Part shown: in pieces, positions 15,774 to 62,118 of the stretch | Position numbering within the stretch: position 1 is the stretch's first letter | Layout of the letters: each line of letters starts with the position of its first letter | Source of the DNA: Gammaproteobacteria bacterium | GTDB lineage: Bacteria; Pseudomonadota; Gammaproteobacteria; JABABF01 | Direction of reading: 5' to 3' | Length of the DNA: 64,000 nt | Assembly (NCBI GenBank): GCA_965237805.1 | Contig: OZ250153.1 | Location: 992,001 to 1,056,000 of the forward strand | Notes under the pieces: generated by a model | The model's input: only the letters and a program-made list of their open reading frames with translations | Told to the model about the DNA's origin: nothing | Databases searched by the model: none | Made by a program: the position numbers and the translations under genes

Positions 15774-18700
15774 CTAGTGGTACACCGGTGTCAGGTCGGC
15801 GTAGCCCGCCTTGACCCCCTTGGGCTTGAACAGCCGGATGTGGTCTATTTTCATGTAGATGGGGTCGAGCCCAGTATGCAAGTGAGCAGCGGGCATATTG
15901 AGGCGCAGGAGCAATGGGGAGTGGGGGATGCCGCATGTGATGTAGGGGTTGCGATTGACGCTGTGCGGATATTGATTGCACTCCACTCCTATAGGATTTG
16001 GATGAAATTGATTGCTGCCATTATTGATGAACTTGCCGTTAAAAAAGAATTTGTAGCCCGCTGGCGTTATCTCGTAACCCATTTTGTATGATTTCTTGGT
16101 GGCCGGATCGTTATCATTGATGCCCCATTTCTGGCCGTAGACCCGCGTGGCCCCTGCAATGGGCCAAGACCACGAGTCGCCCAATGCGACCGCGTCCGCT
16201 CTGCCTACCGCATCTAGCCCCCCGAGATGGTTGACTAGGAACTGTAAGCCCCCTCCGCTCCCGCCAGCAGTATATATGGTTGTTTCGTGATTTTCAAAAA
16301 GATCCACCTCGGTTCCTTGCAGCTCCAACTGCTCGCGCGCCGTGTTCGGGAACATGAAGACCGGCATCCCCACCATCGCGGTGGAGTTTGGCACCGAGCG
16401 TTGCGCCGTGCTGCCCGCAGCCCCCTCAGCCAACCAGTAGGCCCTTACGTCAGCTCCCACAACAGCTGGATAGCGCGCATGCAAAACAAGCCCCGAAGCG
16501 GGCGTGTCCGAACCATAGACGATCGGCGCTTCCATGGCTGGCAGGGTGTCCGCGACCTGCACTTCGAAGTAGCCGTATTTGAACTCCACCTCGCTGGCGA
16601 GAGTGGCCGCAATATGTGAGCAACCCGCCGTCTGAGTGCTGGTGCAGGGCAATGCGGAATAGCGAGGGGGACGCCGCGCCACGCCCAGCCACAACTCGCC
16701 GTCCCGCACATCCAGCGCACGAGTCCATGCCGTCGGGTAAAGTTGCTCAATCAATGCGTGCCGATCGCCATACCGCTCCTCATACCATGCTGGCAGCAGG
16801 CCGATGCGCCGCAGGTATTCGATGACGGTTTCGGCCTCCTCGTCGTAGTCGTTGAACTCTGCAGACCACACCAGTTCGTAGTGCTCTTTGGCATAGCTGA
16901 GCCCGGACTGCAGATCGGCGAGGATGGCTGCCCGCTCGGCATGGTCCAGCGCTGAGCGCCGGACATCCAGCGCTTCCGGCATCCACGCCCGCATCCAGCA
17001 TTGCCGCTTCTCTGCCCGGCTCATCTGGTCGAAGGCCGCCGATACCATGTAGGGTGAGTGCGACGCGCAGGGATTCAGACTGAAACTGCCAACAAAGGCC
17101 AGTGTGCCCTCCAGCACCGCATCCTCGTAAACCAACCGCAACGACAGCTCCGCGCCCCTCAGCAGCTGCTGTTGCGAGGCCGTCAGCGTCGTATCCGTCC
17201 AGATGCCCCCTTGCCGATCGATCCGGAAGTGGAAGGTCTGCCCCCCTCTCGTCAACTCCGCCACCATCAACTCCCAACGGAGCGGCGCACGCTTCACCTC
17301 ATAGCGCGCCAGCAATCCAGTGATATCCGAGGCGGCTGGCAAATAGACGCTTTGCCGCATCGTGTGAAACTCGGAGTAGGGCGAGTCCTTCACCGTGATC
17401 AACAGTTCGGTCTCCACCACTTCCGAGCTGTTAGCCACCCGCAAGGTCACGCGGTGCTCTCGCCACTGCTCGTAATCCAACTCCCCCTCAATGCGCAGCC
17501 AATGGCTCTCCCCTTGCTGTTCGATACTGAAAGCCGTCGCAGGCAGCGCCGACTCCACCGATCCCAGCGACCAGCTCAACTCGTCGCCACCCGCATCCCA
17601 TGCCAGCAACGGCCCGCAGCGGCGCACCGCAGACTCGCCATCGCGCTCCTCAAAAGCACAGCTGGTCGGCCCTGAGTAAACCGGTAGCGCATGACCGTCA
17701 TCCAGCACCCGCAGCAGCAACCGCTGTTCGGCAGTCTCGCCCCAGCGATCGGTCACCGTCAGCACCAAGCGGTGTAGAGAGGACTCCTCGTAGTCCAGCC
17801 GCCCCGCTATCTGCAGAGCCGCCGTCTGATCCGCTGTACTCACCGGCACCACCGAGAAAGCGCCAGCCCCCAACACCGAATCCTCCACCGCGACCGAGAA
17901 ATGCGTGTAATCCAAGGACGCTGGCCAAGCGTCCACCGCGCTCAGCCCCCCGACGACGGCAGTGCTCTGACCCGCCCCTTCCAAGACGGAATACTCTGTC
18001 CAACCGGTGTAGACCGGATCGGGGCGGTCGCGCACAAGTAGCAGCAGTGAAACCTTGGTGGGCTCCCCCTGCGCATCGGTCACCGTCAGCACCAAGCGGT
18101 GCTGCGAGGACTCTTCGTAATCCAAGGCCGGCGAGGCCTTCAGATAGGGGGTGAACTGATCGCCGCTCCACCGCACGATCGTGAAGCCATCAGCCGCCAG
18201 CACCGAGTCCTCCGCCACGACCGAGAAATGCGTATAGCCCACAGCCGCCCCAGCCGCATCCTGCGCCGACAGCCCGCCAATCCAGCGCGCTCCCTCGTCG
18301 ACAGAAATCTCTGTCAAGCCGGTATAGACCACCGCCCCGGGGCGGTCGAGTACCCGCAGCAGCAACCGCTGTTCGGCAGTCTCGCCCCAGCGATCGGTCA
18401 CCGTCAGCACCAAGCGGTGTAGAGAGGACTCCTCGTAGTCCAGCCGCCCCGCTATCTGCAGAGCCGCCGTCTGATCCGCTGTACTCACCGGCACCACCGA
18501 GAAAGCGCCAGCCCCCAACACCGAATCCTCCACCGCGACCGAGAAATGCGTGTAATCCAAGGACGCTGGCCAAGCGTCCACCGCGCTCAGCCCCCCGACG
18601 ACGGCAGTGCTCTGACCCGCCCCTTCCAAGACGGAATACTCTGTCCAACCGGTGTAGACCGGATCGGGGCGGTCGCGCACAAGTAGCAGCAGTGAAACCT

Positions 18701-21700
18701 TGGTGGGCTCCCCCTGCGCATCGGTCACCGTCAGCACCAAGCGGTGCTGCGAGGACTCTTCGTAATCCAAGGCCGGCGAGGCCTTCAGATAGGGGGTGAA
18801 CTGATCGCCGCTCCACCGCACGATCGTGAAGCCATCAGCCGCCAGCACCGAGTCCTCCGCCACGACCGAGAAATGCGTATAGCCCACAGCCGCCCCAGCC
18901 GCATCCTGCGCCGACAGCCCGCCAATCCAGCGCGCTCCCTCGTCGACAGAAATCTCTGTCAAGCCGGTATAGACCACCGCCCCGGGGCGGTCGAGTACCC
19001 GCAGCAGCAACCGCTGTTCGGCAGTCTCGCCCCAGCGATCGGTCACCGTCAGCACCAAGCGGTGTAGAGAGGACTCCTCGTAGTCCAGCCGCCCCGCTAT
19101 CTGCAGAGCCGCCGTCTGATCCGCTGTACTCACCGGCACCACCGAGAAAGCGCCAGCCCCCAACACCGAATCCTCCACCGCGACCGAGAAATGCGTGTAA
19201 TCCAAGGACGCTGGCCAAGCGTCCACCGCGCTCAGCCCCCCGACGACGGCAGTGCTCTGACCCGCCCCTTCCAAGACGGAATACTCTGTCCAACCGGTGT
19301 AGACCGGATCGGGGCGGTCGCGCACAAGTAGCAGCAGTGAAACCTTGGTGGGCTCCCCCTGCGCATCGGTCACCGTCAGCACCAAGCGGTGCTGCGAGGA
19401 CTCTTCGTAATCCAAGGCCGGCGAGGCCTTCAGATAGGGGGTGAACTGATCGCCGCTCCACCGCACGATCGTGAAGCCATCAGCCGCCAGCACCGAGTCC
19501 TCCGCCACGACCGAGAAATGCGTATAGCCCACAGCCGCCCCAGCCGCATCCTGCGCCGACAGCCCGCCAATCCAGCGCGCTCCCTCGTCGACAGAAATCT
19601 CTGTCAAGCCGGTATAGACCACCGCCCCGGGGCGGTCGAGTACCCGCAGCAGCAACTCTTGCTCACGGTAGGCTCCCCGCGCATCCGATACCCGCAACAC
19701 CAGGCGGTGGAGCGAGGATTCCTCGTAGTCCAAGACCCGCAAAGCCCGCAGATAGGGGGTGAACTGATCTTGACTCCACGGCACGATCGTGAAACCCTCA
19801 GCCCCAAACACTGAGTCCTCCACCCGTACTTCAAAATGCGTCCAGCCCAAGGCGACGCCATATTGATCCGTCGCACCCAACCCGCCGACTGCACGCACCC
19901 CCTCCAGCGCCGAGTGCTCTGTCCAACCCGTATAGCTGGGCGGCACGCTGTCATCTGGTAGCACCCGCAATGTCAATGGTACCAGCACATGACCGCCGCC
20001 ACCACCGGCAATATCGTCGACGCGCAACACCAAGCGGTGCAGCGAGGACTCGGCATAGCTCAACACCTGCGAGGCTCGCAGATAGGGGGTGAACTGATCG
20101 CCGCTCCACCGCACGATCGTGAAGCCATCAGCCCCCAGCACCGAGTCCTCCACCGAGACCGAGAAATGCTCCCAACTCAAGGCCGTGCCATCCTCACCCT
20201 CAGCGCTCAGGCCGCTGAGCCAACGCGAGTTTTTGGCAGCGAGCTCCGTCCACCCCGTGTAGAAGGGGCCGGGACGATCGAGCACCCGCAGCAGCAATGC
20301 CTGCTCGTGGTAGGCTCCCCGTGCATCCGATACCCGCAACACCAAGCGGTGTAGCGAGGACTCCTCGTAGTCCAAGACCCGCGAGGCCTCTAGCACCGGC
20401 GTGAAACCATCGCTGGGCGCAGCCACCACCGCAAAGCCGTTTGCACCCAGCACCGAGTTCTCCACCTGCAGCGCAAAGCGCGTGTAGTCCAAGGCGACGC
20501 CGTACTGATCCGTCGCGCTCAACCCATCGACCAAACGCGCACCCTCTAGCACCGAGAGCTCCGTCTGGCCAGTGTAGCTGGGCGGCACACTGTCATCGGA
20601 CAGCACCCGCAACGTCAATGGCACCAACACATAGTCACCACCGCCGCCAACAATGTCGTCGACGCGCAACACCAAGCGGTGCAGCGAGGACTCGGCATAG
20701 CTCAGCACCTGCGAGGCTCGCAGATAGGGGGTGAACTGATCGACGCTCCACGGCACGATCGTGAAGCCATCAGCCGCCAGCACCGAGTCCTCCACCGAGA
20801 CCGAAAAATGCTCCCAACTCAAGGCCGTGCCGCCCGCATCTTCAGCGCCCAAACCGCCGAGCCAACGCGAGTTTTTGGCGACGAGCTCCGTCCATCCCGT
20901 GTAGAAGGGGCCGGGGCGATCAAGCACCCGCAGTGTCAAGGTGGTCTGCACATAGTCGTCGCCACCGGCAATTCCGTCCCCATCGACGCGCAGCACCAGG
21001 CGATGCAAAGCGGACTCCGCATAGTACAGAACCCGCGAGGCTTGCAGATAGGGGGTGAACTGATCGCCGCCCCACGGCGCCACCGTGAAGCCCTCAGCCC
21101 CCAACACAGATTCCTCTACTGAGAGCGAGAAGTGCCGCCATCCCAAGGCATTGCCCTGAGTATCCTCAGCGGCCAGCCCGGCAATCCAGCGCCGACCCTC
21201 GGTGATAGAAATTTCCTGCAAACCGGTGTAGCGCGGCGGCTGGTCGTCGTCGTCCAGCACCCGGATCAGCCACTGCACATCGACATAGTCCCCCTGCGCT
21301 GCCGTGATGCGACCCACCACCCGGTGCAGCGAGGAAGCCAAGTAATACAGCGGCCCCTCAATCCGCAGCGTCACCGAGGCCGGATTCGCCGCATCCGGTA
21401 CCAGCGAAAACGCCGCCGAGCCCAACACCGAGTCCACCGACCACAACTGGTAATGCGAGAGGCCCAACTCGATACCGTCAGCGTCCAAGGCCACGATACG
21501 ACCGGCGGACGCGCCGCCACCCAAGATGCGCGTCGGTGCCCCCCCCTCCAGCAACTCGAACTCCAAATCACCCACATAGCGCGGCGGGGCACCGCCGACA
21601 TCCAACACCCGCAACTCCCCCACCCAATCGAAGTGATCTCCCAGTGCGTCCGTCGCCCGCACTGTCACTTCGTGGCGCGTCGAACTCTCGTAGTCCAACG

Positions 21701-23300
21701 CCACATCCAACAGCGTCAGGCCCCACTGCTGCGCCGCACCTGCCACGTGCGGATACAGCGCCATGCGCACCGAGCCCGCGCGCAGCGGCGGTGCCACCCC
21801 CGTCACCTCCAAACTCACTGTGCCCCCCTCGTGATCCGACACCGACAGCGGGCCGCAAAAGTGAAACGATGCCGTCTCCTCCATCACGCAGTCCCAATCC
21901 CCAGACACCACTGGCAAGTGGTTCACCGACAACTGCAATATTCGTTCCGTGCGGTTCCCCGCGCTGTCCCGAAGCTCCAGCGCCAGCGCGTAACTGTCGC
22001 CTGCAAACTCCGCCCCCGCCAGCGCCCACAACCGACCGCTCTCGCTGTCCACCCGGAACAGGCCCTCCTCGGCACCGGCCGCCAAGTGGTAACTCAGCGC
22101 ACCGCCATCCGGATCCATCCCGCTCAGCCGACCCAGAGAGCGATCTACCGACAGCCGCCTCGGCAGCACCGACACTTGCAGGCCCGCGCCCAACATCGGC
22201 CCGCCCAGGTCGCCGACCTCTCTCACCGCCGCCCGCAGCCGCAACAACACCTCCTTCGCATTCAAATACGGCAGACCCAGCACGACCGACTCCGGCTGCA
22301 AGCCAGCACGGTGCGCCGTGTAAACAATGTAGCGACCGATCAGCAGACCGTCATCCGCCCCTACCGCCCCATCTCCCGTCACATCCCACAGCCCCTCCAC
22401 CGCCGCCACTGGCGCACGCCGCAGCTTGTCCATCAACACCAACTCCGCATCCAAACTGTCGGTACGACCGTCTTTGTTTACATCCAAATCGCCGCCCGAA
22501 CCCCGCACCAGCAACTGCACCTGCGCTGGTGCCAACGCCGCGCCGCCCACCTGCTCCACCGTCAACTCCACGCTCCCATGTAGTGCGTCCTGATCGTGCA
22601 ACACCGCCGTCAACTCCACGCTCAGCGTGCCGTAGGCACCACCGATCAAAGTCGTCTCGCCAACTATCCCCCCGTGGAAGGATGGTGTCGTCCCAGTGGA
22701 TGTCACCTTCTGCGACACCCGTACCCGGTAACTGCCATCCACCTCCACCACGCAGGGCAGGGTCGCAGCGCGCAAATGGCACGTCGCGTCCCCCGCCACC
22801 GCATGCACCGCCAGCTTCACCGTCGAGCGCTCGCCATGCCCCACACGACCACCCATCACCACCACCAGCAAACGCTCCGCCGTCACATCCACCGCTGGCC
22901 CCCTCGCCGCCGACAACCAGCCGCCCAAGGACACCGAAAACTCCCCCGCACCGCCATCGCTGGTCGGCCAATAGCGCAACTGCAAGCGCGCCATATGCGG
23001 CGCTCCGGTCAACGCTTCCAACTGCACGCCGGACACTCGACCCCGATCCACCTGCACCGACAGGCTGGGAGCCAACGCGGCTATATCCACCGACGTATCC
23101 ACGTCGCCTGAAGCGTCAGATACCCACAACTTCCAACTCAGCAGTGCGCCGCCCAACTCGCGCGACGCTGTCTCCTGTGCGCTGAACTCCGCCGATAACT
23201 GCAAGGCAGGCGGCGCTGCCCACGCCCCATTCACCAGTAGCGGAGACGGCAACAGCACAGCTAGCACAGCCAGCACAAGACCCACTCGAAGCACAGACAT
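15774..23300 (-). CDS. Giant secreted protein: signal peptide, dockerin-like pair, about 15 cadherin-like domains, C-terminal GH16-like domain
   Basis: Signal peptide MSVLRVGLVLAVLAVLLPSPLLVNGAWA; DVNKDGRTDSLD and DVTGDGAVGADD; repeated LDYE, A.D..G, V.V.D and RVLD..P.Y cadherin motifs; YELVWSAEF, FKYGYFE, EVDLFE, FFFNG, MKIDHIRLF. Confidence 0.8.
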   Translation of the reverse strand: MSVLRVGLVLAVLAVLLPSPLLVNGAWAAPPALQLSAEFSAQETASRELGGALLSWKLWVSDASGDVDTSVDIAALAPSLSVQVDRGRVSGVQLEALTGAPHMARLQLRYWPTSDGGAGEFSVSLGGWLSAARGPAVDVTAERLLVVVMGGRVGHGERSTVKLAVHAVAGDATCHLRAATLPCVVEVDGSYRVRVSQKVTSTGTTPSFHGGIVGETTLIGGAYGTLSVELTAVLHDQDALHGSVELTVEQVGGAALAPAQVQLLVRGSGGDLDVNKDGRTDSLDAELVLMDKLRRAPVAAVEGLWDVTGDGAVGADDGLLIGRYIVYTAHRAGLQPESVVLGLPYLNAKEVLLRLRAAVREVGDLGGPMLGAGLQVSVLPRRLSVDRSLGRLSGMDPDGGALSYHLAAGAEEGLFRVDSESGRLWALAGAEFAGDSYALALELRDSAGNRTERILQLSVNHLPVVSGDWDCVMEETASFHFCGPLSVSDHEGGTVSLEVTGVAPPLRAGSVRMALYPHVAGAAQQWGLTLLDVALDYESSTRHEVTVRATDALGDHFDWVGELRVLDVGGAPPRYVGDLEFELLEGGAPTRILGGGASAGRIVALDADGIELGLSHYQLWSVDSVLGSAAFSLVPDAANPASVTLRIEGPLYYLASSLHRVVGRITAAQGDYVDVQWLIRVLDDDDQPPRYTGLQEISITEGRRWIAGLAAEDTQGNALGWRHFSLSVEESVLGAEGFTVAPWGGDQFTPYLQASRVLYYAESALHRLVLRVDGDGIAGGDDYVQTTLTLRVLDRPGPFYTGWTELVAKNSRWLGGLGAEDAGGTALSWEHFSVSVEDSVLAADGFTIVPWSVDQFTPYLRASQVLSYAESSLHRLVLRVDDIVGGGGDYVLVPLTLRVLSDDSVPPSYTGQTELSVLEGARLVDGLSATDQYGVALDYTRFALQVENSVLGANGFAVVAAPSDGFTPVLEASRVLDYEESSLHRLVLRVSDARGAYHEQALLLRVLDRPGPFYTGWTELAAKNSRWLSGLSAEGEDGTALSWEHFSVSVEDSVLGADGFTIVRWSGDQFTPYLRASQVLSYAESSLHRLVLRVDDIAGGGGGHVLVPLTLRVLPDDSVPPSYTGWTEHSALEGVRAVGGLGATDQYGVALGWTHFEVRVEDSVFGAEGFTIVPWSQDQFTPYLRALRVLDYEESSLHRLVLRVSDARGAYREQELLLRVLDRPGAVVYTGLTEISVDEGARWIGGLSAQDAAGAAVGYTHFSVVAEDSVLAADGFTIVRWSGDQFTPYLKASPALDYEESSQHRLVLTVTDAQGEPTKVSLLLLVRDRPDPVYTGWTEYSVLEGAGQSTAVVGGLSAVDAWPASLDYTHFSVAVEDSVLGAGAFSVVPVSTADQTAALQIAGRLDYEESSLHRLVLTVTDRWGETAEQRLLLRVLDRPGAVVYTGLTEISVDEGARWIGGLSAQDAAGAAVGYTHFSVVAEDSVLAADGFTIVRWSGDQFTPYLKASPALDYEESSQHRLVLTVTDAQGEPTKVSLLLLVRDRPDPVYTGWTEYSVLEGAGQSTAVVGGLSAVDAWPASLDYTHFSVAVEDSVLGAGAFSVVPVSTADQTAALQIAGRLDYEESSLHRLVLTVTDRWGETAEQRLLLRVLDRPGAVVYTGLTEISVDEGARWIGGLSAQDAAGAAVGYTHFSVVAEDSVLAADGFTIVRWSGDQFTPYLKASPALDYEESSQHRLVLTVTDAQGEPTKVSLLLLVRDRPDPVYTGWTEYSVLEGAGQSTAVVGGLSAVDAWPASLDYTHFSVAVEDSVLGAGAFSVVPVSTADQTAALQIAGRLDYEESSLHRLVLTVTDRWGETAEQRLLLRVLDDGHALPVYSGPTSCAFEERDGESAVRRCGPLLAWDAGGDELSWSLGSVESALPATAFSIEQQGESHWLRIEGELDYEQWREHRVTLRVANSSEVVETELLITVKDSPYSEFHTMRQSVYLPAASDITGLLARYEVKRAPLRWELMVAELTRGGQTFHFRIDRQGGIWTDTTLTASQQQLLRGAELSLRLVYEDAVLEGTLAFVGSFSLNPCASHSPYMVSAAFDQMSRAEKRQCWMRAWMPEALDVRRSALDHAERAAILADLQSGLSYAKEHYELVWSAEFNDYDEEAETVIEYLRRIGLLPAWYEERYGDRHALIEQLYPTAWTRALDVRDGELWLGVARRPPRYSALPCTSTQTAGCSHIAATLASEVEFKYGYFEVQVADTLPAMEAPIVYGSDTPASGLVLHARYPAVVGADVRAYWLAEGAAGSTAQRSVPNSTAMVGMPVFMFPNTAREQLELQGTEVDLFENHETTIYTAGGSGGGLQFLVNHLGGLDAVGRADAVALGDSWSWPIAGATRVYGQKWGINDNDPATKKSYKMGYEITPAGYKFFFNGKFINNGSNQFHPNPIGVECNQYPHSVNRNPYITCGIPHSPLLLRLNMPAAHLHTGLDPIYMKIDHIRLFKPKGVKAGYADLTPVYH
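17707..19656. repeat. Three 645-bp tandem copies (plus 15 bp), each encoding two cadherin-like domains (215 aa)
   Basis: ACCCGCAGCAGCAAC recurs at 17707, 18352, 18997 and 19642; the translated units are identical. Confidence 0.95.
19657..20930. repeat. Two diverged 642-bp tandem copies (214 aa, two cadherin-like domains each)
   Basis: AGAAGGGGCCGGG at 20261 and 20903; the RPGPFYTGWTEL.AKNSRWL unit is repeated with substitutions. Confidence 0.85.
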
Positions 23301-23825
23301 CGTCTGCAAAACCAATCTCAATACTTAGCGCGGGAACACCGCGCCACGGAGATCCTCACAGTCACTGGCAGACACAACGACCAGCCAGCTCCATGCCGCT
23401 CCGCGACTTAGGCGGCCAGACCGCATGGCTTTGGGACATACATAATATGCCGTGATCCCCCCAAAAAATCTATTTACTATAACACCACACCGTGGACCAT
23501 ACAAGCGACAATGTGAAGAATGATCGCATAGCGGCATGCCGCAAAATTCTATATTGCAAGGTGTGGCAAAGCAGCTGTAGCGAGGAGTCGCCTCAGGGGC
23601 GGAACAACTCTAACCAAACAATGTGGTGCCTTGTCAAAGCCATTCTTCGCGCCAAGCTTGGCCTTAGCTTGAGGCAACCGACCCCCTTAAAGGAGGCATC
23701 ATCAAGGATCGTGACGGCAACATTTCAACACCAATTGACATGCTAACATAGCGTGGATGCGGTCAATAGCACCAAGCAATTATGGGAAGATTGGCAACAA
23801 CTCTGCCAGCGCTCAGGGGCGCGGC

Positions 23826-60938: not shown

Positions 60939-61955
60939 CTACATTTTGGGAGGCAAAAAATCCTCATTTAATTGTCTGCAGATCTGCTCCGTCAACCGCC
61001 CCCCATGGAGCTTCGCCAAATGCGCTGCGACATAATTGGCAAAATTCCCCGCATGCAGCAGCGAGTAGCCCCTGATCAGGCTGTAGAGAAAAACGCCGGC
61101 AAAGGCATCGCCAGCGCCGTTGGTGTTGATGGGCACAACGGGGTGCGGCTCAATCTGAGTCGTCTGCCCCTCATGTATCAGTATCGCGCCATCCGCACCA
61201 GCGGTGACAACGACACAGCGTGCGAGCGCGGCCAACGCCGGCGATGCGCTCTCCAGCGTGTCGGCACCGCTCCAAGCCAAGGCCTCGGCGCGATTGCAGA
61301 ACAGCAAGTCGACGCCATCGTCTCCGAATAGCTGGTCTAGGCCCTCGCGACAATGTTTGACGATATTGACATCGGACAAGCTGATGGCGATTGGGACAGC
61401 AGCGGCGGTGGCCAAGCGGCGCGCATGCAATGCCACTTCCAAGCCGTTTTCAGAGCCGACCAAATAGCCTTCTATATAGGCGTAGCGGGATGCGGCCAAG
61501 GCTGCGGCATCGATGTCGTCGGGAGCGATGTCCAGATTGGAGCCGAGTGCCGTCTGTAGCGTGCGCTCGGCATCACCGGTGAGTAGAACCAAGCAACGTC
61601 CGGTAGGCTGACCACCCTGCACCCCACCCAGAGGACGGTATCCGATTCCAGCCTGCGCGAGGCCGCGCAAAAAGATCTCACCCATCGCGTCGTTGTCGAC
61701 ACGGCAGGCAAAGTAGGCATTGGCACCCAAGTGGCTGGCCGTGATCACCGCATTGGCCGCCGAGCCGCCACAGGACTCACCGTATATCTTGCCCTGTGCA
61801 CCGAGCTGTTCGATATTCCGTTGCACGTCCTCATGACTACTGAGCGTCATGGATCCCTTGTCCAAGCCAAGCTCGGACAACAAGGGGGCGTCGACATGGC
61901 ATTCTATGTCGAGCAAGGCGGCACCCACGCCAAATAAATCGTAGCGACCGACCAT
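60939..61955 (-). CDS. PfkB-family kinase (adenosine kinase-like)
   Basis: G.ALLD, KGSMTL, GGSAAN, ERTL, EGYL, FCN..EA, NTNGAGDAFAG. Confidence 0.92.
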   Translation of the reverse strand: MVGRYDLFGVGAALLDIECHVDAPLLSELGLDKGSMTLSSHEDVQRNIEQLGAQGKIYGESCGGSAANAVITASHLGANAYFACRVDNDAMGEIFLRGLAQAGIGYRPLGGVQGGQPTGRCLVLLTGDAERTLQTALGSNLDIAPDDIDAAALAASRYAYIEGYLVGSENGLEVALHARRLATAAAVPIAISLSDVNIVKHCREGLDQLFGDDGVDLLFCNRAEALAWSGADTLESASPALAALARCVVVTAGADGAILIHEGQTTQIEPHPVVPINTNGAGDAFAGVFLYSLIRGYSLLHAGNFANYVAAHLAKLHGGRLTEQICRQLNEDFLPPKM

Positions 61956-62118
61956 CTCAAGCAACCCAGACAATCGCGGAATAAGCGTTTTAGTATAGCA
62001 ATGCAACAGTGCAAGGATCGGTGCCCATCATGGTGATAGGTGCCGAGCACGTCCAGCTGGTAGCGTGTGGCGCACCGGACACAGACCGCAACCAAGGCCG
62101 AGCCAAAGCGGCGTCAAG

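Follow-up and report, generated by a model that had tools for sequence, protein, structure and literature searches.

Among the long repeat adhesins that carry a ligand-binding tip are proteins built on cadherin or Ig arrays as well as RTX adhesins such as LapA and MpIBP. The protein described here shares with these adhesins an anchor end, a repetitive extender, a distal glycan-recognising domain and expansion by tandem repeats. In contrast to the long RTX adhesins, it has a Sec rather than a type I signal, lacks RTX repeats, ends in an enzyme-type tip and bears a dockerin-like module near its N-terminus. Glycanases with comparable accessory domains have been described in Saccharophagus degradans, where Lam81A is composed of a lipobox, CAD and GH81, and Lam16A of GH16, CBM6 and TSP3 (PMC2386152); dockerin-like and cohesin-like ORFs have also been noted in that genome (PMC2386152; PMC3124978). 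As far as the consulted portions of that report extend, these glucanases represent the same general type, a secreted gammaproteobacterial glycanase with cadherin-like or Ca-binding modules, but they have a single cadherin against about 15 here, and no dockerin-cadherin-GH16 order is described (PMC2386152). S. degradans also possesses full sugar catabolism, several genes of which were not found in the genome analysed here.

Dockerins outside cellulosomes are known, according to the parts of the reports consulted, from the planctosome (PMC6461901), from cohesin/dockerin adhesins of syntrophic SRB (PMC10553843) and from Omnitrophota, which encode dockerin-bearing giants with sugar-processing domains (bioRxiv 10.1101/2023.11.21.568195). 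The common feature is that secreted enzymes and adhesins of diderm bacteria bear dockerin-like modules, and the Omnitrophota dockerins lie near type II secretion genes, which are also present in our genome. In contrast to these systems, no recognisable cohesin is present here and each protein carries one module as a terminal tag; the available text of the Omnitrophota preprint contains no occurrence of either cadherin or GH16. Neither a dockerin-cadherin-GH16 protein nor the GH16 branch described below was found in the openly accessible article texts searched. The suggestion in the initial annotation that the locus represents a new system was nevertheless too strong, because proteins combining cadherins with glycoside hydrolases, non-cellulosomal dockerins and giant dockerin adhesins already appear in the consulted parts of published work (PMC2386152; PMC6461901; PMC10553843; bioRxiv 10.1101/2023.11.21.568195). 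The novelty lies in the GH16 branch and in where the dockerin-like tag is placed; the general design and its parts were already known.

The window analysed, a 64-kb stretch of 64,000 nucleotides to which all unprefixed coordinates refer, belongs to an uncultured gammaproteobacterium with a small genome (G000; single contig, 1.73 Mb, 61.6% G+C, 97% complete). The ORF (15774..23321, minus strand) is intact with no internal stop, and encodes 2515 aa from a TTG at 23321; the likelier start is the ATG at 23300, which gives 2508 aa and agrees with the start of the orthologue in a genome of the same genus (G001). The product is of a secreted type, with about 2,500 residues arranged as a signal peptide, an N-terminal cassette, a dockerin-like module, cadherin repeats, a linker domain and a GH16-type tip. 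Both ends of the ORF have orthologues in G001, located on two separate contigs, and the full-length join of the two ends was seen in G000 only. The ORF is flanked by unrelated housekeeping genes in G000, different genes lie downstream of the G001 orthologue, and no transporter or sugar gene adjoins it in either genome. Values of dN/dS against G001 were 0.23-0.32 across every part of the protein; purifying selection acts on it. Our preferred reading, to which we assign a probability of roughly 55%, is that the protein is a long adhesin of the cell surface headed by a GH16 domain, which binds, and probably cuts, a matrix or host glycan for purposes other than food. The domain architecture and the rod-plus-head arrangement proposed in the initial annotation are supported, as is a predicted GH16 fold that contains both catalytic Glu residues.

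Export and the N-terminal dockerin-like module

The Sec-type signal peptide (23217..23300, minus strand; residues 8-35, with A-W-A at its end) is kept in G001. Hydrophobic windows of 19 residues above KD 1.6 start at residues 1-18 only, and the signal peptide is therefore the sole hydrophobic stretch, in agreement with the earlier proposal of a Sec signal and of a protein devoid of a transmembrane anchor, RTX repeats, an autotransporter barrel or GlyGly-CTERM. The whole protein contains no GGxGxD motif, its C-terminus is the GH16 domain, with neither a barrel nor a transmembrane tail, and NCBIfam gave no match for the whole protein or for the tip alone. Since a Sec signal is present, the features of RTX or type I-secreted adhesins do not apply; the protein is neither an RTX adhesin nor an autotransporter, and is a cellulosome component only as a putative reading. 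A gsp cluster of type II secretion, centred on the secretin (PF00263 at G000:213222), was located at 210.8-222 kb of G000 and is gspC-N-like, gene names other than that of the secretin having been read by eye. Signal peptide and type II system thus occur together, as they would for a type II secretion substrate, and in the proposed mechanism Sec would export the chain and the type II system would carry it across the outer membrane. Two extra secretin-containing clusters of type IV pilus-like character (G000:C1:1355000-1366500 and 1555000-1574000) encode very long pilin-like proteins of 674-891 aa.

The N-terminal cassette (22512..23216, minus strand; residues 36-270) contains one Cys pair and is 72% identical to that of the G001 orthologue. 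It is followed by a paired Ca-loop dockerin-like module with a helical tail (22212..22511, minus strand; residues 271-370), which had been recognised by its paired loops and which was matched by Pfam Dockerin_1 (PF00404) at residues 280-332, with 24.8 bits against a cut-off of 22.9 for the N-terminal piece and 21.6 bits within the whole protein. The duplicated Ca-loop plus helix of type I dockerins was found, and a profile of the dockerin-like family matched solved cellulosomal dockerins in the PDB (best 2y3n_B, E 5.8e-5). With this profile, five ORFs bearing the module were detected in six frames of G000, four with the module at the C-terminus and only the present gene with it at the N-terminus. 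Among the G001 loci fetched, a non-exhaustive set, the module lies 17 residues or fewer from the stop in 11 of 12, the exception being the orthologue of this gene; nine seed rows of the profile, besides this gene, came from G000 and G001. Two near-terminal copies were found in G003 and two terminal copies in G124, an unrelated member of the class, giving 19 terminal against two N-terminal modules overall (this gene and its G001 orthologue). The 235 residues that precede the module recur directly before the terminal module of three G001 proteins, with 33-36% identity. On these sequence grounds the N-terminal cassette is taken to be a relocated form of a C-terminal tag of this lineage.

In the proposed mechanism, the cassette and the Ca-loop module would hold the protein at or near the cell surface via a partner, and the module may thus act as an anchor. 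Indirect support for the N-terminal tethering originally suggested comes from other secreted proteins in the lineage that terminate in the homologous cassette. The module resembles a third class of terminal signal, beside ends with a barrel plus SPOR-like domain and GlyGly-CTERM-like ends. Several giant genes of G000 carry such ends. One Ig-repeat giant of about 22 kb (G000:C1:1596946-1619330, plus strand) ends in a dockerin-like module and is read in frames of 855, 6151, 312 and 137 aa, the breaks being either true frameshifts or assembly artefacts. Two paralogous giants of 1914 and 2346 aa (G000:C1:258523-264264 and 270564-277601, minus strand) end, by eye, in an outer-membrane barrel-like region and a SPOR-like domain, and a broken paralogue of the N-terminal cassette lies upstream of them at G000:C1:277905-278669. 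The tails of two tandem giants of 1561 and 1896 aa (G000:C1:1331635-1342121, minus strand), one of which has CARDB-like and M23-like parts, are GlyGly-CTERM-like by eye.

Pfam cohesin (PF00963) was found in none of five genomes, a point against the proposed tethering. When a pattern which we take to be cohesin-like was searched, its only match was the protein encoded after cysM (G000:C1:1315718-1317016, plus strand; L058:4719-6017), a single-copy product of 433 aa with a signal peptide. Its cohesin-like first domain is followed by Ig-like repeats that stop at the same mid-repeat point in G000 and G001, and the gene is syntenic in G001 (L061), where the product is 49% identical. These properties, together with the match of the module profile to solved cellulosomal dockerins, are what a cellulosome-like display would draw on, in which the dockerin-like tags dock on a divergent cohesin, possibly this very protein; precedents exist in the planctosome (PMC6461901) and the SRB adhesins (PMC10553843), as described in the parts of those reports consulted. 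However, the candidate has no Pfam cohesin match, no PDB match and no visible membrane anchor, nor was it recovered from G003 or G124, both of which bear the module; we regard such docking as distinctly improbable. The predicted complex of module and candidate scored 0.01, to which no weight was given either way. The terminal tag, borne by many secreted proteins of a genome in which no cohesin is recognisable, offers a testable route to the surface retention of type II-secreted giants in Gram-negatives.

The cadherin array

The module is followed by a first, divergent cadherin-like domain (21924..22199, minus strand; Pfam Cadherin E 0.028, own profile E 0.0013) and by 14 cadherin-like repeats of about 108 aa each (17376..21923, minus strand), recognised by Pfam and by our own profile. 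Pfam Cadherin (PF00028) matched nine stretches with 173 bits (E 1.5e-51), and the profile built from the protein's own repeats resolved 14 clear units (residues 467-1982) and one weak unit (residues 375-439), in line with the approximately 15 repeats counted at the outset. A linker domain of about 100 aa (17067..17369, minus strand), 63% identical in G001, joins the array to the tip and is possibly a degenerate cadherin repeat. Within the array, 1305 consecutive bases are identical at a period of 645: a 645-bp unit of two repeats stands in three identical copies (17707..19656, minus strand), which together make up six of the repeats and are a recent expansion.

Complete interdomain calcium sites of cadherins consist of the motifs PE, LDRE, DxD and DxND. 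The array does not carry this complete set: LDYE is present in 10 of 14 repeats and DxND in none, so that the linkers are only partly canonical, and judging from these motifs calcium stiffening of the array is plausible but partial. The array of about 15 repeats would reach some tens of nanometres, with a length tunable through tandem duplication. Another surface gene that encodes cadherins, its repeats being related to these (G000:C1:849627-854993, minus strand), is distributed over three frames of 642, 1005 and 334 aa.

A divergent GH16 tip

The tip (15777..17051, minus strand; residues 2091-2515, 425 aa) carries an intact EVDLFE motif, as stated in the initial annotation, at 16293..16310 on the minus strand (residues 2338-2343), in which E2338 would by homology be the nucleophile and E2343 the acid/base. 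Pfam recognised no family over the C-terminal 558 aa, and PF00722 had no match elsewhere in G000 either; the Pfam check proposed earlier was therefore borne out for Cadherin and Dockerin_1, but not for the tip. In the ESM Atlas, GH16 clusters ranked first (0.96) and the ten best family matches all fell within one clan. PDB sequence searches returned nothing significant, the best GH16 being 9ijc with E 0.089. When profiles of the tip family and of two ordinary GH16s from G004, a sister-family genome, were compared, they aligned over 93 N-terminal columns with a probability of 88.7 (E 2.5e-6).

A tip model from a seven-row alignment had a mean pLDDT of 47.8 and a pTM of 0.59, with residues 190-319, including the motif, below 50, so that the modelled geometry of the active site is tentative; the single-sequence model had a pLDDT of 32.5. 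Foldseek with the tip model gave 29 matches at E<=0.001 (best 1.0e-5), and with VIA-align the ranks 1-29 were GH16, some of these family labels being our assumption, led by 8va4 (Z 13.1, rmsd 3.6, 200 aligned residues), with other jelly-rolls from Z 9.0 downward. The GH16 jelly-roll on which the earlier proposal had staked its reading was thus recovered in the model by both programs. Likeness to GH16 extends to the jelly-roll itself (Z 11-13), a WxxEF start, an FKYGYxE strand, ExDxxE and a closing IDxIR strand, in comparison with laminarinases (6xqf, 8va4), a porphyranase (4awd), an endo-beta-galactosidase (1ups), mucin O-glycanases (6t2n/6t2r) and carrageenases (9ijc/5ocq). By modelled fold and by motif, the tip is accordingly placed in GH16. 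In contrast to these members, it is only 9-20% identical, is missed by PF00722 and NCBIfam, has 100-190 extra residues and a Cys-bearing N-terminal helical extension, and belongs to a branch in which the middle motif residue is D, E or Q. Its unusual length and Cys content, also pointed out in the earlier reading, are apparent from 425 aa and five Cys against 231-330 aa for most GH16 matches. The tied best rows of the fold search span laminarinases, porphyranases, carrageenases, an endo-beta-galactosidase and mucin O-glycanases, and therefore no substrate can be read from the fold; the top Z values are likewise tied across GH16 subfamilies, with none to which the tip could be assigned. Because standard profiles miss this GH16 branch, enzymes of this kind escape current annotation, and the substrate may be new.

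The branch is small. A search of 1.84 billion representatives gave five matches, namely this protein, two short fragments, P0005, which combines CARDB domains with the tip, and P0006; four further metagenome proteins also have it. A genome-wide count found no paralogue in G000. Within the order, the tip occurs in two of five genomes (G000 and G001), G002 and G003 being tip-less, and it was found in none of the 399 other sampled genomes of the class that were scored. The G001 tip also stands behind cadherin repeats and is about 57-60% identical to that of G000. A small spirochaete order has the tip in all three genomes, each with between one and three genes for lipoprotein-like products of 670-825 aa, of which one copy is frameshifted, and in a sample of the spirochaete phylum two of 401 genomes had it, the second with broken copies. 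In the spirochaetes, P0005 and P0006, the tip is preceded by a signal that looks lipoprotein-like by eye, which suggests surface anchoring by a different route there. The tip genes of spirochaete G041 are preceded by a 962-aa Cys-rich repeat lipoprotein (L006:2350-5238), and spirochaete G042 has three tandem tip genes with the middle one frameshifted (L020:6100-12618).

JGI metagenome scans and a viral scan gave no confirmed relative; viral fold matches were generic GH16s and were discarded, as was a G005 match with internal stops. Word-index searches with the tip alone and for longer proteins returned nothing, a weak result, the longer-protein search having missed P0005 although it is in the collection. 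Judged on sequence, the tip appears as a divergent, small and patchy GH16 branch, otherwise encountered chiefly in a handful of spirochaetes.

The two gammaproteobacterial tips form one branch (support 99/99) in a midpoint-rooted tree from which P0012 was left out and which gives neither donor nor direction of transfer. Against G001, dS is 1.43 for the tip versus 0.64-0.80 in other parts, and the tip is about 60% identical versus 80-84% for GspD, GspE and CysM, which, for this single genome pair, hints at exchange or faster change of the tip relative to the rest of the protein. GC3 of the tip is 0.71, close to the genome median of 0.72, and there is thus no sign of recent transfer. The patchy spread over one gammaproteobacterial genus and a few spirochaetes suggests that these bacteria have a niche glycan in common. 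A more elaborate scheme, in which the module is a display tag docking on an unrecognised receptor and has moved to the N-terminus, leaving the C-terminus free for a GH16 subfamily that is new, targets a glycan of an animal host and is exchanged horizontally with co-resident spirochaetes, is in our estimate doubtful.

Both catalytic Glu and a downstream His are invariant in the ten aligned branch members, despite identities of 22-29% between gammaproteobacterial and other tips, whereas the middle motif residue varies among the 14 intact members, with Asp in three, Glu in five and Gln in six. This natural variation between two invariant Glu provides a ready test of the role of the middle residue. 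It also lends itself to the view that the tip uses its GH16 scaffold as a lectin and hydrolyses little or nothing, which would make the protein a pure adhesin and with which the sugar-catabolism searches and the altered GH3 described below are equally in keeping. The invariance of the Glu pair and His, and the canonical Asp retained in this copy and its G001 orthologue, speak against such a lectin, which we hold to be unlikely. In the preferred reading, the tip would bind a beta-linked glycan in the surrounding matrix or on a host surface, and probably cut it through the retaining mechanism of GH16, in the service of attachment, release or penetration and not of food.

Sugar catabolism and the role of the tip

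HMM searches found no glucokinase (PF02685) in G000-G003 or G041, no ROK in G000-G004, and no Eda or G6PD in G000-G003, the latter two being present in G004, the sister-family genome with two ordinary GH16s. An enzyme scan by sequence motifs was rejected because it missed universal enzymes such as GAPDH and enolase, and the absence of pathways rests on the HMM searches. The failure to find glucokinase, ROK, G6PD and Eda favours adhesion or matrix trimming over feeding, so that the head is more likely to hold on to a surface or trim it than to nourish the cell. A PfkB-type kinase was noted by eye within the window (60939-62006), and sugar use may proceed via PTS or PfkB routes.

The only GH3 of G000 and of G001 is a full-length, BglX-like, membrane-anchored protein (G000:C1:538128-541046; G001 L067:351-3188). 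In both, the usual nucleophile Asp, located with what we take to be the GH3 nucleophile motif, is replaced, so that on sequence the protein is a possible pseudo-enzyme. GH3 was found in G000, G001 and G041, and not in the tip-less G002 and G003. This co-occurrence would suit a released nutritional glycanase, whose cadherins bind polysaccharide and whose dockerin-like module serves as a tag for secretion or folding instead of as an anchor. The absence of a membrane anchor from the protein and of Pfam cohesin from the genomes, the S. degradans glucanases with cadherin-like and TSP3 modules (PMC2386152) and the polysaccharide binding reported for cadherin domains (PMC10947273, citing Fraiberg), as far as the consulted parts of these papers go, point the same way. 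We nevertheless give a released enzyme little credence, given the failure to find glucokinase, ROK, Eda and G6PD, the lack of an adjoining transporter or sugar gene in either genome, and the presumable cost of a 1,600-residue rod to a 1.7-Mb genome. Genome size and content would suggest an animal host such as a sponge, and cadherin domains are stated to be enriched in sponge microbiomes in the part of the report consulted (PMC10947273).
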